Sequence record: DRR723986_4163
Strand: one strand, 5' to 3'
Length of the DNA: 33,976 nt
The translations under genes were made by a program, and so were the position numbers. The notes beneath the pieces were generated by a model that worked only from the letters and a program-made list of their open reading frames with translations, searched no databases and was not told the origin of the DNA. Positions 3,495 to 33,942 of the stretch are shown here, in pieces. Position 1 is the first letter of the stretch, and each line of letters opens with the position of its first letter.

Positions 3495-3965
3495 TTACAG
3501 GCCTGCGGCCAGCTTGTCGACCATGTCTTTATGAACAGACTCATCGATAGACGCTTCCAGTACTTTTTCAGCACCTGCCAATGCCAGTTTAGCCACCTGT
3601 GAACGCAGTGCTTCTTTCGCACGGTTCATTTCCTGCTCTACTTCGGCTTGGGCTGCTGCTTTCAGGCGATCGCCTTCAGTACGTGCAGACTCTTTCGCTT
3701 CATCAATAATTTGATTGGCGCGCTTGTTGGCAGCATCAATGATGGAAGCCGCTTCCGCTTTGGCTTCGCGAAGCTGCTTGGCAGCTTTTTCCTGAGCAAG
3801 CTCAAGATCGCGACCCGCGCGGTCTGCGGCATCAAGACCGTCAGCAATCTGCTTTTCACGCTCTTCCATTGCCTTGCGGATAGCGCCCCACACAAATGCG
3901 TGGCAGAACCATACGAAGAACAGGAAGGTGATCGATTGTCCAATCAGTGTGAGATTAATATTCAC
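3495..3965 (-). CDS. atpF: Fo ATP synthase subunit b
   Basis: GTG start; [14 protein letters not shown] single TM helix followed by a charged coiled coil; 156 aa. Confidence 0.97.
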
Positions 3966-4021
3966 GCCGATACCTCTGCTATATCAAGTTGCTGAACGTG
4001 TCGTATTCCGAATGCGTGCAA

Positions 4022-4294
<273 letters not shown>

Positions 4295-4316
4295 TTAGTT
4301 AGTTAAAGCAAATACC

Positions 4317-5258
<942 letters not shown>

Positions 5259-5290
5259 TCACTCTCATTGCAAAACTTAGAAACTGTTTT

Positions 5291-5701
5291 TTACCTTGCG
5301 CCGGGGTTTCTCAACACGGCCACCAGCAAGGTGTTTAAAAGCATACCCACCAGGTATGCCGAAAATACGGCGACGGCAGAGAGGGGTCTGACCATTGCGA
5401 ACGTGGCGGCAAACAGCCCAACCGTCGCAATAAATTTGCCCGCTTCTGCCCGGTAGAATGATTGATTTACCTCGCGCGCGTATGCCGCGCCGGCGTACTT
5501 AAAAACCTGGCGCGCAAAATAGGCATTGGGTAAAACGGAAATCAGCCCACCGATTAACAAGGATTTTGCTACCACCCCGTTAATTGAATATGTAAACCCG
5601 CTTGCGACAAGCAGCACGATGCATTGCAGGCCATAAATTTTTAGCAGTGGGGGTTTGACGGTGGCTAGCGCAGTTTTCTGCTGCCGCTGTGTTGCTGTCA
5701 T
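5291..5701 (-). CDS. atpI: ATP synthase protein I; start uncertain (ATG 5701 or 5725)
   Basis: Four hydrophobic segments, GGLISVLPNAYFA and FYRAEAGKF motifs; first gene of the atp operon. Confidence 0.88.
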   Translation of the reverse strand: MTATQRQQKTALATVKPPLLKIYGLQCIVLLVASGFTYSINGVVAKSLLIGGLISVLPNAYFARQVFKYAGAAYAREVNQSFYRAEAGKFIATVGLFAATFAMVRPLSAVAVFSAYLVGMLLNTLLVAVLRNPGAR

Positions 5702-5757
5702 TGCCCTGTTTACCTGCCGCTGCAACGCATTTTTCGCTTGTCCAAAAAGCGGGGCGA

Positions 5758-5786
5758 ATTATAGGTGGTCATTGGCTAAGGATCAA
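5758..5786 (-). promoter_or_regulatory. Sigma70 promoter of the atp operon
   Basis: Minus strand TTGATC (5786-5781), 17 bp spacer, TATAAT (5763-5758), then GC-rich TCGCCCCGC. Confidence 0.8.
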
Positions 5787-5821
5787 CCGATTTACCATTT
5801 ATGCGACCAAAGTCTGCAATA

Positions 5822-5873
5822 AGCACAATTCGCAATTCGTTAACAATATCAGGAATTTAGCAGCACAATTCGC
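5822..5873. repeat. 12-bp direct repeat AGCACAATTCGC x2 upstream of the atp promoter
   Basis: Copies at 5822-5833 and 5862-5873 (40 bp period), plus a partial CAATTCG at 5833-5839. Confidence 0.65.
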
Positions 5874-5934
5874 GGGGTTATTTTACCTGGCTACCAGATG
5901 GGGTAGCACCGCTACATTGTTGCCACCAAATAAG

Positions 5935-6855
5935 CTATTTCATATGGCTGAGAATTCCGTCCAATTCGTCCAGGCTGCTGTATTTTATGGTGAGTTTTCC
6001 GCGGCCTTTGGCGCCGTGCTGAATTTGCACAGGGGAGCCGAGTTTTTCGGACAGACTGTCTTGTAATTGTTTGATGTCGGGGTCGATGCGCGGGCTGGAT
6101 TTGGCGGGGCTTTTGGCCTCGTCAACCAAGCGTCGCACCAGGGCTTCGGTCTGGCGCACCGATAAACCGCGGCTGACGACGGTAGCGGCGGCGCTGCTCT
6201 GCTGCTCGGCGGGCAGGCCCAGCAGGGCGCGACCGTGGCCCATTTCAATATCGCCATTTTCCAGCAGGGTTTGCACGTCGTCGCGCAGCCCGGTAAGGCG
6301 CAGCAGGTTGGTGATGGTGGTGCGCGATTTGCCCACAAGGCCGGCAATTTCGGCGTGGGTGAGTTCAAATTCTTGTTGCAGGCGAACCAGTGCCAAGGCC
6401 TCTTCCATGGGGTTGAGGTCTTCACGCTGCAGGTTTTCGATGAGTGCCATCGCCGCCGCGGCTTCGTCGGGCACTTCGCGAATCAGCGCGGGTACGGACT
6501 CTAAACCGGCCAACTGGCTGGCGCGCCACCGGCGCTCACCGGCGATAATTTCATAGCGGTTGTCGGCGATGGGGCGCACAACAATCGGCTGCATAATGCC
6601 CTGGGAGCGGATGGACTCGGCTAGTTCTTCCAGGCCTTCGGCAGGCATTTCCCGGCGCGGTTGGTATTTGCCGCGCTGCAGGTATTCGATGGGCAGGTTT
6701 TTCAATTCGCCATCCACGGCGGCGTCGCTCACTGCCGCTGAGGTTGTCGCGCTGGCTGGCTCCACACTTGTCGCGGTATCGGCGATCGCTACCGGTTCTG
6801 CGGAGGCGCCCAGCAGGGCGTCCAGGCCTCGTCCTAAACCTCGTTTCTTAGCCAT
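5935..6855 (-). CDS. parB: Chromosome partitioning protein ParB
   Basis: Likely start MAKKRGLGRGLDALL at ATG 6855, overlapping the parA stop; GERRWRA motif, ENLQREDLNPMEEA, HTH region. Confidence 0.96.
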   Translation of the reverse strand: MAKKRGLGRGLDALLGASAEPVAIADTATSVEPASATTSAAVSDAAVDGELKNLPIEYLQRGKYQPRREMPAEGLEELAESIRSQGIMQPIVVRPIADNRYEIIAGERRWRASQLAGLESVPALIREVPDEAAAAMALIENLQREDLNPMEEALALVRLQQEFELTHAEIAGLVGKSRTTITNLLRLTGLRDDVQTLLENGDIEMGHGRALLGLPAEQQSSAAATVVSRGLSVRQTEALVRRLVDEAKSPAKSSPRIDPDIKQLQDSLSEKLGSPVQIQHGAKGRGKLTIKYSSLDELDGILSHMK

Positions 6856-8340: not shown

Positions 8341-10230
8341 TCAGGCGGACTTCCTTTCCAGCAGACCGCGCTTTTTCAGCGTAATCAGTAACAGCGATAC
8401 CGCGGCCGGGGTCACGCCGGGAATCCGCGAGGCTTGGGCGAGGGTTTGCGGTCGCGCGTCACCCAGTTTTTGTTTGATCTCGTTGCTCAGGCCTTCGATC
8501 ACGCTGTAGTCAAAGTCCAGTGGCAACGGCGTTTCTTCATGGCGACGCAGGCGCTCGATTTCGTCTTTCTGGCGCTCGATGTAGCCCGCGTATTTCACGC
8601 CAATTTCAATCTGCTCGGCGACATCGTCCACCACTGCTTCGCCATCTTGCACCATATCCGCCAAGTCGGCATAGCCCAGCTCCGGGCGTTTTAGCAGGTC
8701 GAGCAGATTGTATTCGTGACTGATCGGTTTGCTGAACTTGGCCGCCAATTGCTCGGCTTGCGGGGTATTCGGTTGAATCCACGTGCTGGCCATACGCTGG
8801 CGCTGGCGCTCAATGGCTTCGCGCTTTTCGCAGAACGCGGCCCAGCGCGCATCGTCGACCAAGCCCAGTTCACGGCCCTTTTCGGTGAGCCGCTGGTCGG
8901 CATTGTCTTCGCGCAGCAGCAGGCGATATTCCGCACGCGAGGTAAACATGCGGTAAGGCTCTTTGGTGCCCATGGTAATCAGGTCGTCAACCAGCACACC
9001 GATGTAGGCTTCGTCGCGACGCGGACACCACGACTCTTTGCCCTGCGCCAGCAAGGCGGCGTTGGCACCGGCCAACAAGCCCTGGGCAGCGGCTTCTTCG
9101 TAACCGGTGGTGCCGTTGATCTGACCCGCAAAAAATAAACCGGCAATGAATTTGGTTTCCAGCGAGTTCTTCAGGTCACGCGGCTCGAAGAAGTCGTACT
9201 CAATGGCGTAGCCGGGGCGTGTCATATTGGCATTTTCAAAGCCCTTGATCGAGCGAACCAACGCCAACTGAATATCAAACGGTAGGCTGGTGGAAATGCC
9301 ATTGGGGTATAGCTCGTGTGTTTTCAGGCCCTCGGGCTCGATGAACACCTGGTGAGAGTTTTTATCGGCAAAGCGATGGACTTTGTCTTCGATCGACGGG
9401 CAGTAGCGGGGGCCGATTCCCTCGATTACGCCGGTGTACATGGGCGAGCGGTCTAAACCACTGCGAATAATCTCATGGCTGCGCTCGTTGGTGTGGGTAA
9501 TCCAGCAGCAGACTTGCTCGGGGTGCATGCTTCGGTCACCCAGATACGACATTACCGGGCGGGGTTCATCGCCCCACTGTTGCTCCAGGCCAGCAAAGTT
9601 GACGGTTTTTGCGTCAATGCGCGGCGGCGTGCCGGTTTTCAAGCGATCTACCCGGAAGGGCAGTTCGCGAAGGCGGTGCGCAAGTGCAATGGAGGGTTGG
9701 TCGCCGGCGCGACCACCGCTGTGATTATCCAGACCGATGTGGATTTTTCCGCCGAGGAAGGTGCCCGCCGTCAGGACAACGCTGCTGGCATAGAATTTCA
9801 GGCCGATATTTGTCACGACGCCGCGAACACAGTCGCCTTCGACGATCAGGTCGTCTACGGCCTGCTGAAAAATGGCGAGGTTTGCCTGGTTTTCCAGTAT
9901 TTCTCGCACCGCGGCTTTGTAGAGCACGCGGTCAGCTTGTGCGCGGGTTGCCCGCACCGCGGGCCCTTTGCGGGCGTTAAGCACGCGAAATTGAATACCA
10001 CCGCGATCTGTCGCCAGGCCCATGGCGCCGCCGAGTGCATCCACTTCTTTGACAAGGTGGCTCTTACCAATGCCACCAATGGCGGGATTGCAGGACATTT
10101 GCCCCAGCGTCTCGATGTTGTGGGTAAGCAAAAGGGTTTGGCTACCCATACGGGCAGCGGCCAAGGCGGCTTCCGTACCGGCATGGCCACCACCGATAAC
10201 AATGACATCGAATCGCTGCGGATAGTCCAC
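8341..10230 (-). CDS. mnmG: tRNA uridine 5-carboxymethylaminomethyl modification enzyme MnmG (GidA)
   Basis: [15 protein letters not shown] motif, [36 protein letters not shown]; 629 aa. Confidence 0.99.
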
Positions 10231-10265
10231 AAAACACCTGAATGAGTAATTTTACTGGGGGCGAA

Positions 10266-10293
10266 ATTATACGGGGTTCTGGATGCGCTGCAA
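10266..10293 (-). promoter_or_regulatory. Sigma70 promoter of mnmG-rsmG-parAB
   Basis: TTGCAG (10293-10288), 16 bp spacer, TATAAT (10271-10266), then TTCGCCCCC. Confidence 0.7.
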
Positions 10294-10299
10294 TGAATT

Positions 10300-10630
10300 G
10301 GTGAATTTTTAATCAATTCTTTTTTTGTGTTTAAAGAATAAGATTTTATGAATATATATGTTGATAGTTTTATGTTTTTTTATTCTTGATACTGATGTTA
10401 AGGAACCGCTTTTCTGTGAGTAAGGTATCTAAGCCATTGTATTTAAATATTTTTCTTGATGTATAACTACCGTTTTTATCCACAGATATCCTGTCATCTT
10501 GGTGTGAGCGGTTTGGGGATGAAATGTGGATAAATCGGCGCGTGTCGGGGGCTTGTGAGTAAGTGCCGCCTTATCGACGGGTTTTTCACAGGCTCAGACG
10601 TGTCTATCCCGATCTTATCCTTGGGATAAA
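10300..10630. other. oriC-like element 1 (mnmG-proximal): AT-rich tract plus DnaA boxes
   Basis: Very AT-rich ~10305-10400. TTATCCACA 10476-10484, TGTGGATAA 10525-10533, TTTTTCACA 10582-10590, one-mismatch TGTGAGTAA 10415-10423 and 10554-10562, and TTATCC-ttg-GGATAA 10615-10629. Confidence 0.8.
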
Positions 10631-10646
10631 TAGTAGAAAAATGGGC

Positions 10647-12509
10647 TTAGGGCAGCTGTTCAGCAATGCTATTGCGCAATTGCTCTAGCGATACCGGTTT
10701 GGAGAGGAAGGCGTTCATACCTGCATTTAAGCAGCGACGTTGGGTTTCTGGATCAGTGTTAGCCGTTAGGGCGATCACAGGGATGTGTTGGTGCAAGCGC
10801 CTGCGGAGCTGCAGAGTCGCTTCAAAACCGTCCATAATCGGCATTTGCAGATCCATTAAGATCACATCGGCGTGGTGTTGCTCCAATTGACTAATCGCTT
10901 CGGCGCCATTGTTAGCCGTAATGACGTCTGCCCCCCAACCTTCTAGGCTGCGAGCGACCAACAGCTGATTGACGGGGTTATCTTCAACCACCATTGCGGT
11001 TAGCCCAGAGAAACACTGCTCGTCATCCACTGTGTTTTCCTGCGCTTGTGCAGCCAGCTTGCGATAGCGCGTACGCCACACCACGGTGAAACTGGAGCCC
11101 TCACCGGGCTGGCTGCTCAGCTGGATGTCGGCCTTCATCAGCTCGCTCAGTCGCTTGACGATGGCCAGACCCAGCCCTGAGCCACCATAGCGGCGAACCG
11201 TGGAGTTATCGGCCTGGTGGAAGCTCTCAAATATATGGGCTTGTTGTTCTGGGGTAATGCCGATGCCGGTGTCGCTAACGCGCAGTGTTAATTGCAGGGT
11301 TTCTGCATCGACAGGCTGTTGCTCCAGACTGACATCGACCTTGCCCTGATGGGTGAATTTGACCGCATTGGCCGCGAGGTTGATAACGATCTGTCGCAGT
11401 CGGGTTTCATCGCCACGTATTTCGATACGGCGCAGAACGGGGTCGATATGGGTATTGAAAACGATGCCTTTACTTTGCGCATCCAGCTTCATGGGTTGAA
11501 GGATTTCACCCAGCAGAGACTGGGGTGGGAAGAAGCGCTCTTCGAGCTCCATATCGCCTTTTTCGATGCGCGAGTAGTCGAGGATATCGTTTACGATGTG
11601 GAGTAAATGCTCGCTGGAGCTTTTGGCAATATCCAGGTAGTGGCGTTGGGATTCATTCAGTTCGCTCTTGGCCAACAGCTGTAGCATGCCCAGTGCGCCA
11701 TTCATGGGCGTTCTGAGTTCGTGGGTCATGGTGGCCAGGAATAAGCTCTTGGCCATGCTGGCCTCTTCTGCCTTGCCTTTGGCGAGTTTTAGCTCTTCTA
11801 CATAGTCGCTGAGTTCGCGCTGCTGGGCTTCGATGGCGTCGGCCATGTCGTTGATGTGGCGCTGTAGTTCGCCGAGTTCACCACGCTCTAAGTGTTGGAT
11901 ACGGCTGCCGTGCTTGCCGCTGGCGATCTCTTGCGTGACGTGCTGGATTTCGCTGAGCGGTTGCGACAAACGGCGGCTGACGCGAAGGGCAAAGGCGGCG
12001 CCAAGAAGAATTGCCAGCAATGCAATACTGATGGATACGGCGATTATGCTGCGCTGCAATGCGTTGAGCCCGGCATTGGAGATATCCAGCTCCAGTCGCC
12101 CAAGAATATTGTTGATGGGCGGCAGCTGTTCACCGGTGATGGCGTCAGTTAGTGCGATGCTGCGCTGTTCCAGCAGGATACTGATGGTGTTGCCGGGCCC
12201 GTTAGCGGTGTTTCGGCTGACGCTAATGGGTTTGCTATCGCCAAAGCGATACACGCGTAAGGCGATGATATCGCCCTGCAGCGCCGACTTGAGAATGTCA
12301 TTGAGTTGTTGGTCGTTACCGCTAATCAGCGGCAGCTCGATCAGGGCCGCGACGTTTTCCGCAATGCGTTCACCCAGATCGATCTGATAGCGTTGAGCGT
12401 CGCTGAGTCGGGCGGCAAGTGAGTAGGAAAACAGGGCAATAAACAACACCAGCATCGGAGCCAGGCTGGCAATTAAAATCTGTTGAAAGAGGCTTCTTCG
12501 CGCGCGCAT
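10647..12509 (-). CDS. Membrane hybrid sensor histidine kinase (TM-periplasmic-TM-HAMP-HisKA-HATPase-REC)
   Basis: Two TM helices; [16 protein letters not shown]-box, [11 protein letters not shown]-box, DTGIGI G1, FESFHQAD F-box, GSGLGL G2; receiver motifs VVEDN / LMDLQMP / FLSKP. No HPt domain. Confidence 0.93.
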
Positions 12510-13394
12510 TTACCGCCCCCTCAAGGTGTTGAGTAGGCTTTGCTCATCGTCGATAACCAGGCCCAGAGAATCGGCGACGTTGCGGTTGATGGTGACACTG
12601 TAGCGCTGTGGATAGCGCGCCATGGGCAGACGGCCGTGATCGCGGTAATGGTTGATCATTGCCTTTGCTTCAGCGGCGTAGTCGCTGGGCTTTGATACGA
12701 CAGACGCCAGCGCCCCCGCACTGACGAAACCGGCGTTGGGGCCAATAAGAAAGTTCTGGTGGCGATAGGTTGCCAGCAGTACGCCGCGGATGGTGGCGGC
12801 GTTGTAGAGATTTTGCTCGGGTGTTGCCAGCAGCACATCGCTGCGCTGGATTAAGCGGTTTAGCTTGCGCTGCGAGGCGGATCCGTCGGCCGGTATTTGT
12901 TCGCTATTAAATTGGTATTGAGGATATTGGTCGGTGAGCTGGTGGAGTTGTTGATGGTAACTGGGGCTTTCCCAGGCCATGGCAATGCGCGCCGGTTTGC
13001 CCTTGAGTATTGCGTCAATCAACTTTATTTGTCGTGCGATAGGTTGGTCTGAGTAGACGGCGCTGGCATTCTCGGCGCGATAGGGGCTAAAGCGCACACT
13101 GTTTGCATACAGCGCCAGTTTGGCCGGGTAGTGAGCGCTGTTGATCATTGGCAGCAGGCCGTCGGAGACAAGTAACAGCACATCTCCGGCCTGTGCTGGG
13201 TCTGGGAGTTCGTTGATGTAGACCTGTAATTGGTAGTCGCTCGGGCTGGCAATTTCGCTGGCAAGTTGCCGCAGGGAAGCGTTATCCACAGGGAGCACTA
13301 GGTCGACCTTTAAAGAGGGTTTATCACTGCCATACGCCGCCACTGCCAGGAGCAGTAATAGCGCGTATTGAAGTCCTTTAAGCAGTGTTTTCAA
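12510..13394 (-). CDS. Periplasmic ABC-type substrate-binding-like protein, with no permease or ATPase nearby
   Basis: Signal peptide MKTLLKGLQYALLLLLAVAAYG; TTG start with GAGGAAGG RBS. C-terminal FVSAGALAS...YSVTINRNVADSLGL resembles the ABC_sub_bind (PF04392)-like family, by recognition only. Confidence 0.7.
   Translation of the reverse strand: MKTLLKGLQYALLLLLAVAAYGSDKPSLKVDLVLPVDNASLRQLASEIASPSDYQLQVYINELPDPAQAGDVLLLVSDGLLPMINSAHYPAKLALYANSVRFSPYRAENASAVYSDQPIARQIKLIDAILKGKPARIAMAWESPSYHQQLHQLTDQYPQYQFNSEQIPADGSASQRKLNRLIQRSDVLLATPEQNLYNAATIRGVLLATYRHQNFLIGPNAGFVSAGALASVVSKPSDYAAEAKAMINHYRDHGRLPMARYPQRYSVTINRNVADSLGLVIDDEQSLLNTLRGR
13282..13290 (+). promoter_or_regulatory. Isolated perfect DnaA box inside a CDS
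   Basis: TTATCCACA at 13282-13290; function unproven. Confidence 0.35.
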
Positions 13395-13427
13395 GGATTC
13401 CTTCCTCGAGGTTGATATGCATCACGG

Positions 13428-15395
13428 CTAATAGCGCAGGCTCAGAGTGAATAGCTGCCGCAGTTCTTCACGGTAAAAGTTATCCGATAACAGTTCGCTG
13501 TTATCGTCATGCTGATATCGTGCCACGTAGGCTAACTGCACTTCGGTGCTGCGCAGATTCAGGGTGTGAGCCAGCCGTAAATCTGACCGTGAAAAGGTAT
13601 TTTTCCCCCGGCGACGTGTGTTTTGACTGTAGTAGCGGCTGAGTGAAAGTTGAGTATTGCTTAAAAATTTATAACTGAGCAGCGCGCTGAAATTATTGCT
13701 GGGAGTGAAGCTCTCCTCATTTTGGGTTGTGGTGTCGGAATTAATATAGGCGTAGCTGGCGTGGAAAAGCCAGTTGGGCGATGGGCGATAATCCAGCTCG
13801 GTTTCTATGCCTTGTTGGCGCAGGCGGTTGCTGTTCTCTGGGGAGAATTTATCCAGTGCGGTTGAGTCTGATACAAGGTTGCTTAGGTGGTCGCGGAACA
13901 GCTTTATATCCCACTGTAAGCCGATGTGTTGAAAGTTGGCGTAGTAGCCAATTTCGCGAGAGGAAATTTTCTCCGCGCGTAAATCTGGGTTCCCCGTAGC
14001 TTTAACAACGTACTCGCCGGTGGTTTGGCCATTGTGCGTGGGGGTGATGTTTTTAGCGCGATAGGTCCAATCGGCCGTGGTTTCCAATAAGTCGGGGCTG
14101 CGCACCGCTTCGGAGTAGACGGCGCGAAAACTGTGGTGATTGTTCAGGTGGTAGTGCAGTGAAAGCCTGGGCGAGAAATGGTCTTTGTTGTCGTTGCTGT
14201 CCCGTTCCCACGAGGCACCAACATTGCCCGTAACACGGTCGCTGATTCGGTATTCGGCATTGGCAAAGAGCTGGGTGCTATCGCTACGGCGGTTTCCATT
14301 GTAGTAGGTCTCGGAGCTAACGCGGTTGTGCTTAATGTGAATGCCAGCCACTGTTTTTAAGTCTGCTGACCACACCATGGTGTCCTGAAACTCAATGTCC
14401 TGGCGAGTTTGTCGGCTGTTTTCGTTGGCATCAACGCGCACCAGTGGTGAGGGATGGGTGGGCTGACCGATAAACGCCGGCGGCAGTACCGCCTGCCATT
14501 CTTTTTGCTGCTTTTGACCGGAGTAGTCAATGCGCAAGTGTTGATGGTGGTCTTTGCTTAAGTCCCAACTCATTTTGGCGGAAACAAAATGGTTGCGGTG
14601 ACGAGTATCGGGAGCGGTGATATCGATATCGGCAAAGTCGTCGCTTATCCACCCCTGTTTGTAGCCCATCGCCAAGCTGATATTGGCCTGGTCGAGGGCC
14701 TTTTCATAGCGCAGGTTGAGTGTGTCGCTATTATCGCTGTCGCGGCGGTCTTCACCGTCGCGGTTGACTTCAAAACCATCATCGCGACGGCTTTGTAGGC
14801 TCAATCGGTACTTACCGCCCTCGAAGCTACCGGCGTGGCTGAGCAGGTAGTCCTCGACCTGATTATCACCTTTGCGGGCTTGTAGGTAGAGTTTGTCGGC
14901 ATCGTCGGGGTGACGGGTAATAATATTGATGACGCCCAAAAACGCATTGGCGCCGTAACTTGCCGTGGAGGGGCCCCGGACGACTTCGATACGTTCGATG
15001 TCTTCAATTGCCAGGGGAATATCGTTCCAGTTTACCGTTGCCAGGCCTGCTTGGTAGATGCTGCGTCCATCTACCAGCACCTGCATGCGCCGCGAGTCGC
15101 GATAATTTGTGCCGTGGTAGCTGACCACGTGGTTCCAGCCGTCGCGTGCGCCGACTGATGTGCCGGGTATCAGTCGGAATAATTCGGGGATACGGCGTAT
15201 TCCCGATGCGATGATCATTTGACGGTCGATCACACTGACACTGGCGGGAACCTCGCTGCGGCTTTGTTTCAGGCGGGCTGGTGTAAGCACAACGGGAAGT
15301 GCCTCGTTATCCCACAACTGGGCATGGCTGGGTAGGGTGGCGGCGCTGCTAGCGACCAGTAGTAATAATAGAGAGTGGCGGGTAGCGTCAGCCAT
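13428..15395 (-). CDS. TonB-dependent outer membrane receptor
   Basis: Signal peptide ending SHA; plug motifs ELFRLIPG, QVLVDGRSIY, IERIEVVRGPSTASYGANAFLGVINIITR; GNPDLRAEK; C-terminal beta strand FTLSLRY. Confidence 0.93.
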   Translation of the reverse strand: MADATRHSLLLLLVASSAATLPSHAQLWDNEALPVVLTPARLKQSRSEVPASVSVIDRQMIIASGIRRIPELFRLIPGTSVGARDGWNHVVSYHGTNYRDSRRMQVLVDGRSIYQAGLATVNWNDIPLAIEDIERIEVVRGPSTASYGANAFLGVINIITRHPDDADKLYLQARKGDNQVEDYLLSHAGSFEGGKYRLSLQSRRDDGFEVNRDGEDRRDSDNSDTLNLRYEKALDQANISLAMGYKQGWISDDFADIDITAPDTRHRNHFVSAKMSWDLSKDHHQHLRIDYSGQKQQKEWQAVLPPAFIGQPTHPSPLVRVDANENSRQTRQDIEFQDTMVWSADLKTVAGIHIKHNRVSSETYYNGNRRSDSTQLFANAEYRISDRVTGNVGASWERDSNDNKDHFSPRLSLHYHLNNHHSFRAVYSEAVRSPDLLETTADWTYRAKNITPTHNGQTTGEYVVKATGNPDLRAEKISSREIGYYANFQHIGLQWDIKLFRDHLSNLVSDSTALDKFSPENSNRLRQQGIETELDYRPSPNWLFHASYAYINSDTTTQNEESFTPSNNFSALLSYKFLSNTQLSLSRYYSQNTRRRGKNTFSRSDLRLAHTLNLRSTEVQLAYVARYQHDDNSELLSDNFYREELRQLFTLSLRY

Positions 15396-15507
15396 AGAGA
15401 CTTCCTTGTGGCGGAAAATTTTAACGGTAGTAACTTACGATAAGTGTAGCTGGGGTCTCACATCTATGTCGCAAATTGTACTGCGCATGAAGTGATAATA
15501 GGGATAG

Positions 15508-19574: not shown

Positions 19575-19730
19575 CCTATTGACAAGTTATTCACATCTTG
19601 ATCCCGGGGTTATCCACATGTTGTTCTGTTTTATCCATAGAGTCTTATTGTTTATTGTTATATATCATTGAAATTTAGGTATTTTTTAACGGTTCGCGAT
19701 TGTTGATAAAGTCGCGTAGGTGTGGATAAG
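19575..19730. other. oriC-like element 2 (rpmH-dnaA intergenic): DnaA boxes flanking an AT-rich tract
   Basis: TTATTCACA 19587-19595, TTATCCACA 19610-19618, TTATCCATA 19631-19639; AT-rich 19645-19690; TGTTGATAA 19701-19709, TGTGGATAA 19721-19729. Confidence 0.85.
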
Positions 19731-31170: not shown

Positions 31171-33942
31171 GTGTTTGCCATTCGAAGCGGTTTTATCGCC
31201 TGTTGTATCATTCTCAGCGCCTGTGGTGGCGGGAGTTCATCGGGCAGTGACAACAGTAGTGCGCCCGCTGATAACAGCGAGCTGACGATTATTGGCGAAA
31301 CGGAAGTCGCCGCGCAAAGTACGCAAATTCTATTAGCACAGGATAACAGCGATAGCGCCATGACTGCGCCGTGGCAGTGGACGGTCGTCTCCGGCCAGTC
31401 CCTGCTGGAAACCACCGAGGTTGATGAAGAGCGTTTTCAATATCGCAGCGTGGCGCTGAACGGCCCTGCCAGTATTCGTGTGCGTGTGCAGCGTCAGGCT
31501 GCCGACGGGGAGCCCCGATCTGCCGAAACCTCGATTCAGTTAAGGCCGGCTAACGATACAGCAATGGCGCCGCGGGTGGATGCTGGTTCAGATAAAGTGG
31601 CTGATGAAGGGGAAGAAATTACGCTCTATTCCTCGGTAACGGCGCGCAACGGCCGCAGTATCAGGGCCCTTTCCTGGCAGCAAACGGCGGGGCCGAGTGC
31701 CACGATTATTGGCGCCAGTGACCAAGACAGCTTGCACCTCCGCCTGCCCCAGGTTGAGCAAGATGACACCCTGCGCTTTCGTCTGAGTGCCCGGGACAGC
31801 GGCGGCTTTATCGGTAGTGACAACACCTCGGTGCAGTTGCGCAATGTGTTTCAAAACCGTCTACCCATTGTCGATGTGGGCGATAGTTTCGACGCGCGTG
31901 GCCGTGAGCGGGTGAGCCTTAGTGCATCGGCGATTGATCCCGATGGCGACATTGTCAGTGTGCGTTGGCAGGGTTTGGGTGAAGATAACGACCTTGTGAT
32001 AGATGGGGCCGACACCCTGCAGGCAAGTTTTGTTGCACCCAATCCCAGTGAGGCACGAGACCTGGTACTGAGGTTGACGGCAACCGACAACAGCGGCGGT
32101 AGTGCCAGCGCCGACCTGCGTATCCATCTGTTGCCGGTCGCAAATCGGGCGCCACAAATCGAGCGTGTTGAGGTCGACCCCGGGGTTGCCTACAGCGGCG
32201 AAACCGTTTTCTTGCGCGGCATCGCCAGCGACGCTGACGCCGATGCCCTGCAAACAATTTGGCAGCAGGGCGAAACGAGCGGCGATGTGCGTTTGGGCCT
32301 GCGCGATGCCGACAAGCCCAATGCCAGCTTTATTGTTCCAGCGCTCAGTGAGCCCGTGCTTGTTGAAATAGCGTGGCAGGTGAGCGATGGTCGCGCGCAG
32401 ACCGAGGAGCGTCGCAGCTTGCAGTTGGTGCCGCGGGAAGCGCAAAGCCCGGATCCTTTGTCGTGCTTAATGGACCCACTGCAACCCGGTTGCCCCCTCT
32501 ACCCGCTGTCTTCGATACTTGATCCGCAAGCCTTTCTGGCCTGCTCAGACCCGTTAAGCAGCGACTGCATACTCGGCGACCTCATCGGCCCGTCGCTGCG
32601 CCAATGCTTGCGCCAACCTTCTGCCGAGGGCTGCGCGGAGGCTTTGCTGGATGTTACCGAGCCAAGCTATGTGCTTGAGCAAATTGGCCCGGAGGCACCC
32701 GCCGATGCCTGCACCCCCGCGTATGATCCCGATAGCTTCGAGGATTACATCGGTGCGATGCACGAGCACACCGCCTACTCTGACGGCACGCCGCTAACCA
32801 AGCCTGCGGATGTGTATCGTCGGGTGAAGGAACTTGGCTACGACTTCGTCGCCTCCTCTGACCATTCCGATAACCTGGGCATCCCCCTCTCCACGGGCAT
32901 AGGCCGGGCAGAATGCCCACCTGAAAACTTTCTTTACTGCCTGTTTTTGGTTGACGAGCAACGCCCGCAGGATGCACTGGCCAAGTGGGCAGCGACGCTT
33001 AGTCAAAGCAATGCCGCCACTACCGATAATTTCACGGCTATACGCGGCTTTGAATGGACCTCGGACCGATTCGGCCATGCGAATGTCTACTTCTCGCGCA
33101 ATATCATCAATGCCAAAACCGGCCCCGGATACGCGGTGAGTATGGCCTTGTTTTGGCAGTGGTTTACCTATCCTGCGCAGTTTGGCGGCGGCAGTGATGG
33201 ACTGCTTAGCTTTAATCACCCCGGCCGTGAAGATGCCTTGGAATCCGCCTTTGAGTTTGCCGGCGGTGACCCGGCTTTTACATTCAATGATTTTCGCTAT
33301 GTCGATACCGCTGACTACCGCGTTGTCGGTATTGAGGTCTTTGGCAAGGGCAGTGAATACGATAGCGATGGGCCGGGCGGGAGCTGGTTGAGTTATGCCC
33401 TGGATAAGGGCTGGCACCTCGCGCCGATCAGCTCAGAAGACCATCACGGCATTCACTGGGGTGACCCCGACTTACCAAAAACCGTGATCCGGGCGCGCTC
33501 TCGCAGCCTTGATGATTTGCGAGAGGCGCTGTTGGCAAGGCGGATATATGCCGTGGCGCAACACTACAGTGACTTGCGTTTGGACTACCGCGTGGCTGAT
33601 GCCACCCTGGGAGCGAGAATTCGTCAACCGGCGGGCAGCGTGTTGCCTTATCGAGTATCGGTGAGCCTGCATGGCCAAGTTATGTCGAGCGCTGTGGTGC
33701 AGTTGGTTGGGCCGGGGAACACCGTGTTAGCACAGGCGACAGGCGGCGAGCTACAGGGTGAGCTTTCCGTAGGCAGCAACAAAAAATACGCCTTTGTTAG
33801 GGTGTTAGATTCGGCGAATAATAACCGTCCGGTGGCGTTTTCAGCGCCGATTTGGCTGCTGCCAGGCGACGCGCCGCTGCCATTGTGCCGCCCGCCTTCG
33901 GTCTGGGAAGGGGATAGTTTGCTCTATCCCGCGCTGCCTTAG
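31171..33942 (+). CDS. Predicted lipoprotein with PKD/Ig-like repeats and a C-terminal PHP-type (CehA/McbA-like) metallohydrolase domain
   Basis: Lipobox ILSA-C18 plus GGGSSSG linker; repeats such as VDAGSD...LSWQQTAGP and AIDPDGDIVSVRWQ; metal-ligand motifs HEHTAYSDG, SSDH, GFEWT, GHAN, FNHPG, SEDHH. Confidence 0.8.
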   Translation: MFAIRSGFIACCIILSACGGGSSSGSDNSSAPADNSELTIIGETEVAAQSTQILLAQDNSDSAMTAPWQWTVVSGQSLLETTEVDEERFQYRSVALNGPASIRVRVQRQAADGEPRSAETSIQLRPANDTAMAPRVDAGSDKVADEGEEITLYSSVTARNGRSIRALSWQQTAGPSATIIGASDQDSLHLRLPQVEQDDTLRFRLSARDSGGFIGSDNTSVQLRNVFQNRLPIVDVGDSFDARGRERVSLSASAIDPDGDIVSVRWQGLGEDNDLVIDGADTLQASFVAPNPSEARDLVLRLTATDNSGGSASADLRIHLLPVANRAPQIERVEVDPGVAYSGETVFLRGIASDADADALQTIWQQGETSGDVRLGLRDADKPNASFIVPALSEPVLVEIAWQVSDGRAQTEERRSLQLVPREAQSPDPLSCLMDPLQPGCPLYPLSSILDPQAFLACSDPLSSDCILGDLIGPSLRQCLRQPSAEGCAEALLDVTEPSYVLEQIGPEAPADACTPAYDPDSFEDYIGAMHEHTAYSDGTPLTKPADVYRRVKELGYDFVASSDHSDNLGIPLSTGIGRAECPPENFLYCLFLVDEQRPQDALAKWAATLSQSNAATTDNFTAIRGFEWTSDRFGHANVYFSRNIINAKTGPGYAVSMALFWQWFTYPAQFGGGSDGLLSFNHPGREDALESAFEFAGGDPAFTFNDFRYVDTADYRVVGIEVFGKGSEYDSDGPGGSWLSYALDKGWHLAPISSEDHHGIHWGDPDLPKTVIRARSRSLDDLREALLARRIYAVAQHYSDLRLDYRVADATLGARIRQPAGSVLPYRVSVSLHGQVMSSAVVQLVGPGNTVLAQATGGELQGELSVGSNKKYAFVRVLDSANNNRPVAFSAPIWLLPGDAPLPLCRPPSVWEGDSLLYPALP

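Follow-up and report, generated by a model that had tools for sequence, protein, structure and literature searches.

A conserved gene trio of marine Spongiibacter encoding a TonB-dependent receptor, a periplasmic binding protein and a hybrid histidine kinase: a candidate envelope-spanning sensing module

In the LuxP–LuxQ, TorT–TorS and ChvE–VirA systems, a periplasmic binding protein without a role in transport serves the adjacent sensor kinase as its ligand-binding subunit. Binding proteins of this type come from families other than the one considered here, the sensor domains of their kinases are not of the GacS type, and to our knowledge none of these systems has a dedicated outer-membrane receptor. 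In the FecA/FecR/FecI system, it is a TonB-dependent receptor that heads the signalling path. Here, we describe three adjacent genes for a TonB-dependent receptor, a periplasmic binding protein and a hybrid histidine kinase on the minus strand of sequence record DRR723986_4163, at positions 10,647 to 15,395 of a stretch of 33,976 nucleotides (the whole of which is called the window hereafter). The host of this trio is a marine Spongiibacter (Cellvibrionales, family Spongiibacteraceae). With a probability of roughly 0.55, the trio is an envelope-spanning module that senses an outside molecule by way of the receptor, then the binding protein and then the kinase.

The described system closest in layout is the Pah system of Cycloclasticus sp. 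P1, which is known to us from parts of the published report (Wang 2023, iScience, PMC10570129). PahS (687 aa), PahP (318 aa) and PahK (771 aa), which are a TonB-dependent receptor, a periplasmic binding protein and a kinase, respectively, are encoded adjacently, and PahR is encoded elsewhere. The Pah proteins are reported to co-purify, to bind one another, and to bind and relay polycyclic aromatic hydrocarbons (PAHs). According to the same parts of the report, no ATP-binding cassette (ABC) transporter or extracytoplasmic function (ECF) sigma factor is involved, and PahP is proposed to be the periplasmic sensor of the kinase (PMC10570129). The order of receptor, binding protein and kinase, with the regulator elsewhere, is also that of the window, a likeness of layout and not of compared sequences. 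PahK is stated to have no periplasmic sensor domain (PMC10570129), whereas the window kinase has one of the GacS type. For Pah orthologues, the authors require an identity above 45% that extends over more than 80% of each protein, and Spongiibacter is not in the genus list that they give for Pah (PMC10570129, in the parts covered). The window binding protein shares at most about 36% identity with matches below its closest group (at least 38%, taken as the genus), and by the 45% rule the window trio would not count as a Pah orthologue. The sequence-only reading of this locus had taken the system to be undescribed, a claim that has to be given up, as the Pah layout is published and biochemically characterised (PMC10570129). 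The layout is thus already known from one published system, and the window trio is a further variant of this kind. In the literature searched, no paper besides Wang 2023 was found to link PF04392 proteins or other binding proteins with GacS-type kinases or TonB-dependent receptors, and a term search of a review on the signal of GacS gave no mention of TonB or of binding proteins encoded nearby (PMC7695008).

The three genes of the trio, as given by the list of open reading frames (ORFs), are the following.

13428-15395, minus strand: TonB-dependent receptor gene, 655 aa, ATG start
12510-13394, minus strand: periplasmic binding-protein gene, 294 aa, TTG start
10647-12509, minus strand: hybrid histidine kinase gene, 620 aa, ATG start

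Three co-oriented genes with gaps of 33 and 0 nt had been read from the letters alone, and the ORF list and a reading of the junctions bear this out. The stop codon of the receptor gene (TAG, 13430-13428) is followed by 33 nt, containing a ribosome-binding-like stretch GAGGAAGG, and then by the TTG codon of the binding-protein gene at 13394. The TAA codon of the latter (12512-12510) directly abuts the ATG codon of the kinase gene (12509-12507), with a gap of 0 nt. The identities that had been given to the receptor and the hybrid kinase agree with their Pfam matches, to Plug and barrel domains in the former and to HAMP, HisKA, HATPase_c and Response_reg in the latter. The absence of an ABC permease or ATPase, an ECF sigma or anti-sigma factor and a response regulator, which had been remarked upon as well, was confirmed for the 34-kb window by Pfam, which detected none of them and no separate response regulator; the kinase has a receiver of its own. 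The trio arrangement is far beyond chance, because it is conserved in all of the 17 genus loci fetched and recurs across families, and the three genes stand as a conserved unit.

The binding protein is soluble and has a signal peptide without a lipobox cysteine. It has no Pfam match even at E 10 and no NCBIfam match even at a permissive threshold (E 1). Its earlier assignment to PF04392 (ABC_sub_bind) is thus not supported by a direct search with hidden Markov models, although it is upheld by transitive homology. Of its word-index homologues, 41 of 53 carry PF04392, as do 25 of the 40 rows of the binding-protein alignment A1, and an exhaustive search with the protein gave 2215 relatives at E <= 0.001. 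The profile of A1 matches the solved PF04392 proteins 3lkv (5e-17), 3lft and 6hni. The AlphaFold (AF2) model of the binding protein, with a mean confidence score (pLDDT) of 95.8, has a two-lobed type-I binding-protein fold, and the best matches to this model in Foldseek are 3lkv, 3lft and 6hnj, with LuxP among the weaker ones. Taken by its homologues, profile and modelled fold, the protein is a divergent member of the PF04392 lineage, and its subfamily bears the motif DQPxxRQ.

PF04392 proteins with solved structures are amino-acid-binding parts of ABC importers (PMC6816091, PMC9382623), and those of the 3lkv, 3lft and 6hni type bind aromatic amino acids for such importers (PMC6816091, PMC10443332), according to the portions of these papers available. 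The window protein shares fold and lineage with these importer proteins (VC_1101/3lkv, SP1069/3lft, CD0873/6hni and TrpX), as far as profile and model tell. Unlike them, it lies below the Pfam threshold, has no permease or ATPase partner and has the motif DQPxxRQ. Its gene precedes a sensor gene, whereas theirs precede a permease gene. The canonical order of PF04392, PF02653 permease and ABC ATPase (ABC_tran) is present at the control locus L112, and an ABC permease and ATPase stand beside the binding protein in only one of the 71 loci examined. The nearest genome, G001, is 99% complete, and its binding protein is 98% identical to that of the window. A profile search of G001 gave no match to the PF02653 permease, to which control genomes of the same search do match, and none to PF04392 at E 0.01; PF02653 is also without a match in the window. 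The description of the protein as an orphan is therefore sound in that no transporter of the expected class is encoded in G001 or in the window. As in the LuxPQ type, the gene of a transporter-less binding protein adjoins that of a membrane kinase.

The kinase consists, in order, of a first transmembrane segment (TM1), a periplasmic domain of about 120 residues, a second segment (TM2), HAMP, HisKA, HATPase_c and a receiver. Its parts are placed as follows.

12051..12413, minus strand: periplasmic detector domain, residues 33-153, a divergent sCache_4/PDC domain
11829..11981, minus strand: HAMP, residues 177-227 (Pfam 3e-10)
11076..11753, minus strand: kinase core, HisKA 253-318 and HATPase_c 366-478 (Pfam 1e-21 and 2e-30)
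10665..10994, minus strand: C-terminal receiver, residues 506-615 (Pfam 2e-28)

No Hpt was found in the kinase by Pfam or in its translation, and the protein stops five residues past the receiver. The periplasmic stretch of the window kinase has no sCache_4 match in Pfam. When the detector domains of the genus were aligned by hhalign with the sCache_4-bearing domains of relatives, a probability of 98.6 and an E-value of 8e-16 were obtained, and the detector-domain profile A5 matches PDB 5o7j at E 3.8e-15. This entry is the periplasmic detector domain of Pseudomonas aeruginosa GacS (PMC5595915, seen in part). The AF2 model of the domain has a pLDDT of 87, and its Foldseek matches to Cache/PDC domains are weak (E >= 7e-3); no Foldseek match was obtained at E <= 0.001, and the sequence profile is the informative test here. 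By this profile, the periplasmic domain of the kinase is homologous to the detector domain of GacS. The HAMP-HisKA-HATPase-receiver core is likewise homologous to that of GacS and BarA. Those kinases have a C-terminal Hpt, which makes them tripartite (H1-D1-H2), whereas the window kinase has none.

The receptor has a signal peptide and matches Plug (4e-21) and TonB_dep_Rec_b-barrel (2e-31), the latter a family of 22-strand barrels. The Plug begins at residue 47, hence the receptor has no N-terminal signalling extension, and Pfam detected no STN domain in it. In this respect the locus departs from the FecA type, which has an N-terminal extension and an anti-sigma/ECF sigma pair; no such genes are present in the window. 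TonB is available to the receptor, with five TonB_C matches in G001. Profile A6, built from 25 module receptors of other families and no genus sequence, gave the module receptor as its top match in all three genus genomes searched (501 vs 245, 509 vs 96 and 487 vs 286 bits). The window receptor thus belongs to a subfamily that travels with the module across families.

The two closest relatives are Spongiibacter marinus DSM 17750 (98%) and, at 94%, Neomelitea salexigens DSM 19753. The binding protein is present in 23 of 25 genus genomes, and the two without it are 78% and 76% complete. The trio is flanked by mnmE and mnmG, with its order kept, at every one of the 17 genus loci that were fetched; at one of them (L017 in G009; 3570-6051), about 2.4 kb of other DNA separates mnmE from the receptor gene. 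The kinases of these 17 loci are 620-659 aa long, hence none of them has an Hpt. With two near-identical loci excluded, MnmE has a median identity of 72.6% to the window, compared with 55.0% for the receptor, 54.0% for the cytoplasmic kinase part, 42.8% for the binding protein and 41.1% for the detector domain. The last two are the fastest-diverging parts of the module, and they diverge at a similar pace.

The module is not confined to the genus. Among 400 genomes of the class, 84 match the A1 profile at E <= 1e-10 (one further genome was unscored). From other gammaproteobacterial families, 63 loci were taken, the 60 top-ranking places together with three found in the first search; two of them stop at a contig end, which leaves 61 downstream neighbours. 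Fifty-three of these neighbours are sensors, namely 49 histidine kinases (34 with Hpt) and four HAMP-PAS-GGDEF-EAL proteins, and the others are one receptor with a kinase behind it and seven genes that are of other kinds or uncallable. sCache_4 is present in 39 of the 53 downstream sensors. The binding-protein gene overlaps the downstream gene by exactly 4 nt in 36 of the 61 loci, according to our own ORF calls. A same-strand adjoining receptor of one subfamily is present in 50 of the 63 loci when ORF calls are corrected with a local profile, and in 42 of 61 by Pfam. The wider family thus has the same receptor/binding-protein pair ahead of either a GacS/BarA-like kinase or a GGDEF-EAL protein. 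It had been suggested in the sequence-only reading that a constant pair with an exchangeable output be looked for, and this is what the 49 kinases and four GGDEF-EAL proteins among the 61 neighbours show. The six published pocket residues of PahP were also compared with the 63 loci, and at most four of six were matched, by a single locus and at an implausible offset. NarL-type response regulators adjacent to the module were considered as UvrY/GacA orthologues and rejected, with 79-88 bits vs a cut-off of 280 in four of the eight regulators scanned.

Of eight weaker loci, five have a binding protein paired with a GGDEF-EAL protein and no receptor, one has the full triad, one is of the canonical ABC kind and one is unclear. 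At L105, L106, L108, L109 and L111, weaker PF04392-like genes stand directly before genes for membrane (HAMP)-GGDEF-EAL proteins, with no receptor. Such pairs may represent a second, receptor-less signalling use of the PF04392 family.

The relation of the module kinase to GacS and BarA differs among genomes. Nine other genomes were tested. In eight of them, the BarA model has its best match, over the full length, in the module kinase, with none of these matches above the curated cut-off; the ninth has the GGDEF-EAL form of the module and no full-length match to the BarA model. BarA is also the best NCBIfam model of the window kinase, which was tried as the GacS/BarA orthologue of its genome and rejected, since it scores 403 bits vs a cut-off of 890, over residues 130-490 only, and another gene of G001 scores 683 bits over its full length. 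The latter encodes a separate GacS-like kinase of 895 aa and adjoins a cysK/M-like PALP gene (L113:6949-10679, G001:C3), with no receptor or binding protein there. The gene lying divergently before the receptor is a cysK/M-like PALP gene in 16 of the 24 tested (loci L035-L090), and a PALP gene lies directly before the binding protein in four more loci. A cysM gene beside gacS is a classical synteny in Pseudomonas.

Kinase trees were built from 36 rows, with four GGDEF-EAL rows dropped and no outgroup. In these trees, the 895-aa kinase of G001 clusters with the module kinases of other families (SH-like support 0.98, ultrafast bootstrap (UFBoot) 96), and the genus kinases form a separate clade with the kinase of L086 (UFBoot 100). 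The L086 kinase (633 aa) is an Hpt-less module kinase of another family in the same order. The same clade of the genus and L086 is recovered in the binding-protein tree rooted on canonical PF04392 proteins (UFBoot 100). The parts of the module have been inherited as a unit, because the binding-protein and kinase trees share this split and the receptor is of the module subfamily. The window trio thus represents an old paralogous short-kinase lineage of the wider module family.

The rest of the window is an origin-proximal housekeeping block with the atp operon, parB, parA, rsmG, mnmG, the trio and mnmE, and this block continues beyond mnmE with yidC, rnpA, dnaA, dnaN, recF, gyrB and glyQS. The gap upstream of the receptor gene is the likely place of the module promoter.

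15396..15507, minus strand: gap between mnmE and the receptor gene, 112 nt, with an AAGGAAG stretch ahead of the ATG

Two perfect DnaA boxes (10476-10484 on the plus strand and 10525-10533 on the minus strand) lie in the 416-nt gap between the kinase gene and mnmG (10231-10646) and adjoin a stretch that is very rich in AT. Five more boxes, with two perfect ones among them, form a second cluster at 19587-19729 upstream of dnaA, and across the window 20 DnaA boxes with at most one mismatch were counted vs 4.2 expected. Either cluster may be oriC, so the module possibly lies directly beside the replication origin. At 31171-33942, an ORF of 923 aa with PKD-like and bacterial Ig domains probably encodes a surface protein.

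As a sensing module, the trio is proposed to work as follows. The receptor would bring a small molecule across the outer membrane, and the transporter-less binding protein of the PF04392 type would capture it in the periplasm. The loaded binding protein would then dock on the GacS-type detector domain, which is proposed to be its docking site, and thereby switch the kinase. The kinase would phosphorylate its own receiver, and because it has no Hpt, the phosphate would have to reach a response regulator by way of an Hpt from another gene. Such an Hpt could come from one of the stand-alone Hpt ORFs of the genome or from the full-length GacS-like kinase. G001 has 14 Hpt matches, including stand-alone ORFs of 131 and 140 aa.

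One alternative to this scheme dispenses with import. In a relay of the kind proposed for Pah, the receptor would keep the binding protein at its periplasmic face, sense the molecule outside and either hand over the ligand or release the binding protein, activating the kinase. Wang et al. report, in the parts of the paper covered, a dissociation constant of 9.2e-8 M for PahS and PahP, ligand-dependent release, and binding of PahP to PahK (PMC10570129), and the window has the same gene order as Pah, to which this likeness is confined. However, the window receptor is an ordinary Plug and barrel with no extra domain, and 13 of 63 related loci have no adjoining receptor; such a relay is possible and, in our judgement, unlikely. 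The loci without a receptor also bear on the converse arrangement, in which binding protein and kinase detect a compound in the periplasm, and the receptor, regulated together with them, imports this same nutrient, so that sensing is coupled to nutrition. The constant core of the module is indeed the binding protein and the sensor (53 of 61), and some of the clusters lacking a receptor begin with a NarL-type response regulator. For a nutritional role, however, an inner-membrane carrier for this binding protein is missing from the window and from G001, and the receptor that accompanies the module across families is of one subfamily, and placing the receptor at the output seems quite doubtful to us. 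An ordinary uptake protein that serves a distant ABC importer, with the kinase unrelated to it, would accord with the importer role of the solved PF04392 proteins (PMC6816091, PMC9382623, as far as these were covered) and with the canonical locus L112. It is very improbable in view of the complete lack of PF02653 permeases in the 99% complete G001, the 0-nt junction with the kinase gene and the 4-nt overlaps in 36 of 61 relatives, the congruence of the binding-protein and kinase trees, and the single locus out of 71 with an ABC permease and ATPase beside the binding protein.

The proposed path from receptor through binding protein to kinase has several points to its disadvantage as well. Thirteen of the 63 loci pair a binding protein with a sensor and show no receptor in the stretch fetched; this pair can therefore do without the receptor, which may be a regulated target instead of the input. 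E. coli BarA is reported, in the part of the paper covered, to bind acetate directly via its own detector domain (PMC8639471), and a domain of the GacS type therefore does not necessarily depend on a binding protein. The window binding protein scores below the Pfam threshold of PF04392. At one genus locus (L020 in G021; 8892-10872), the receptor gene is broken into two parts that overlap (residues 22-306 and 293-655), owing to either a frameshift or a sequencing error. A consensus scan found no sigma-70-like site in the 112-nt gap at 15396..15507, and promoter and terminator consensus hits in the window were not above those in shuffled sequences (2 vs 4.3 and 11 vs 7.1, respectively). In favour of the module, the genes are covered at 95-99% identity by RNA-library contigs from four marine metatranscriptome runs, which belong to three studies; these contigs bridge the receptor/binding-protein junction in all four runs and the binding-protein/kinase junction in three of four. 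This coverage is consistent with expression in the sea, with the reservation that such contigs cannot prove a single transcript and may contain DNA; their depths differ between the receptor part and the kinase part and are not rankable.

A more far-reaching idea is that a receptor and a binding protein of the PF04392 type were the ancestral input device of GacS/BarA, which was lost in model organisms, and that Spongiibacter has kept it on a dedicated, short and Hpt-less paralogue, which feeds the Hpt of the full-length GacS. The phosphate feed from LadS into GacS is a model for such a route. We hold this idea to be rather doubtful. If it were true, the long-sought signal of GacS would be an actively imported molecule, and the Spongiibacter module would be a second gate into the Gac/Rsm global switch.

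Most sensor kinases have yet to be matched with a signal, and the search for that of GacS/BarA has gone on for decades. A soluble binding protein linked genetically to a GacS-type detector offers an easy handle, as the ligand that it carries could be identified once the protein is purified. The presence of a TonB-dependent receptor suggests a signal that is either scarce or too bulky for porins. With a compact kinase in a harmless and culturable marine genus, the Spongiibacter trio would make a practical model. Pah is probably no special case of hydrocarbon degraders. Judged by its layout, it seems to belong to a module that is spread across many gammaproteobacterial families and in which kinase and cyclic di-GMP outputs are interchangeable.

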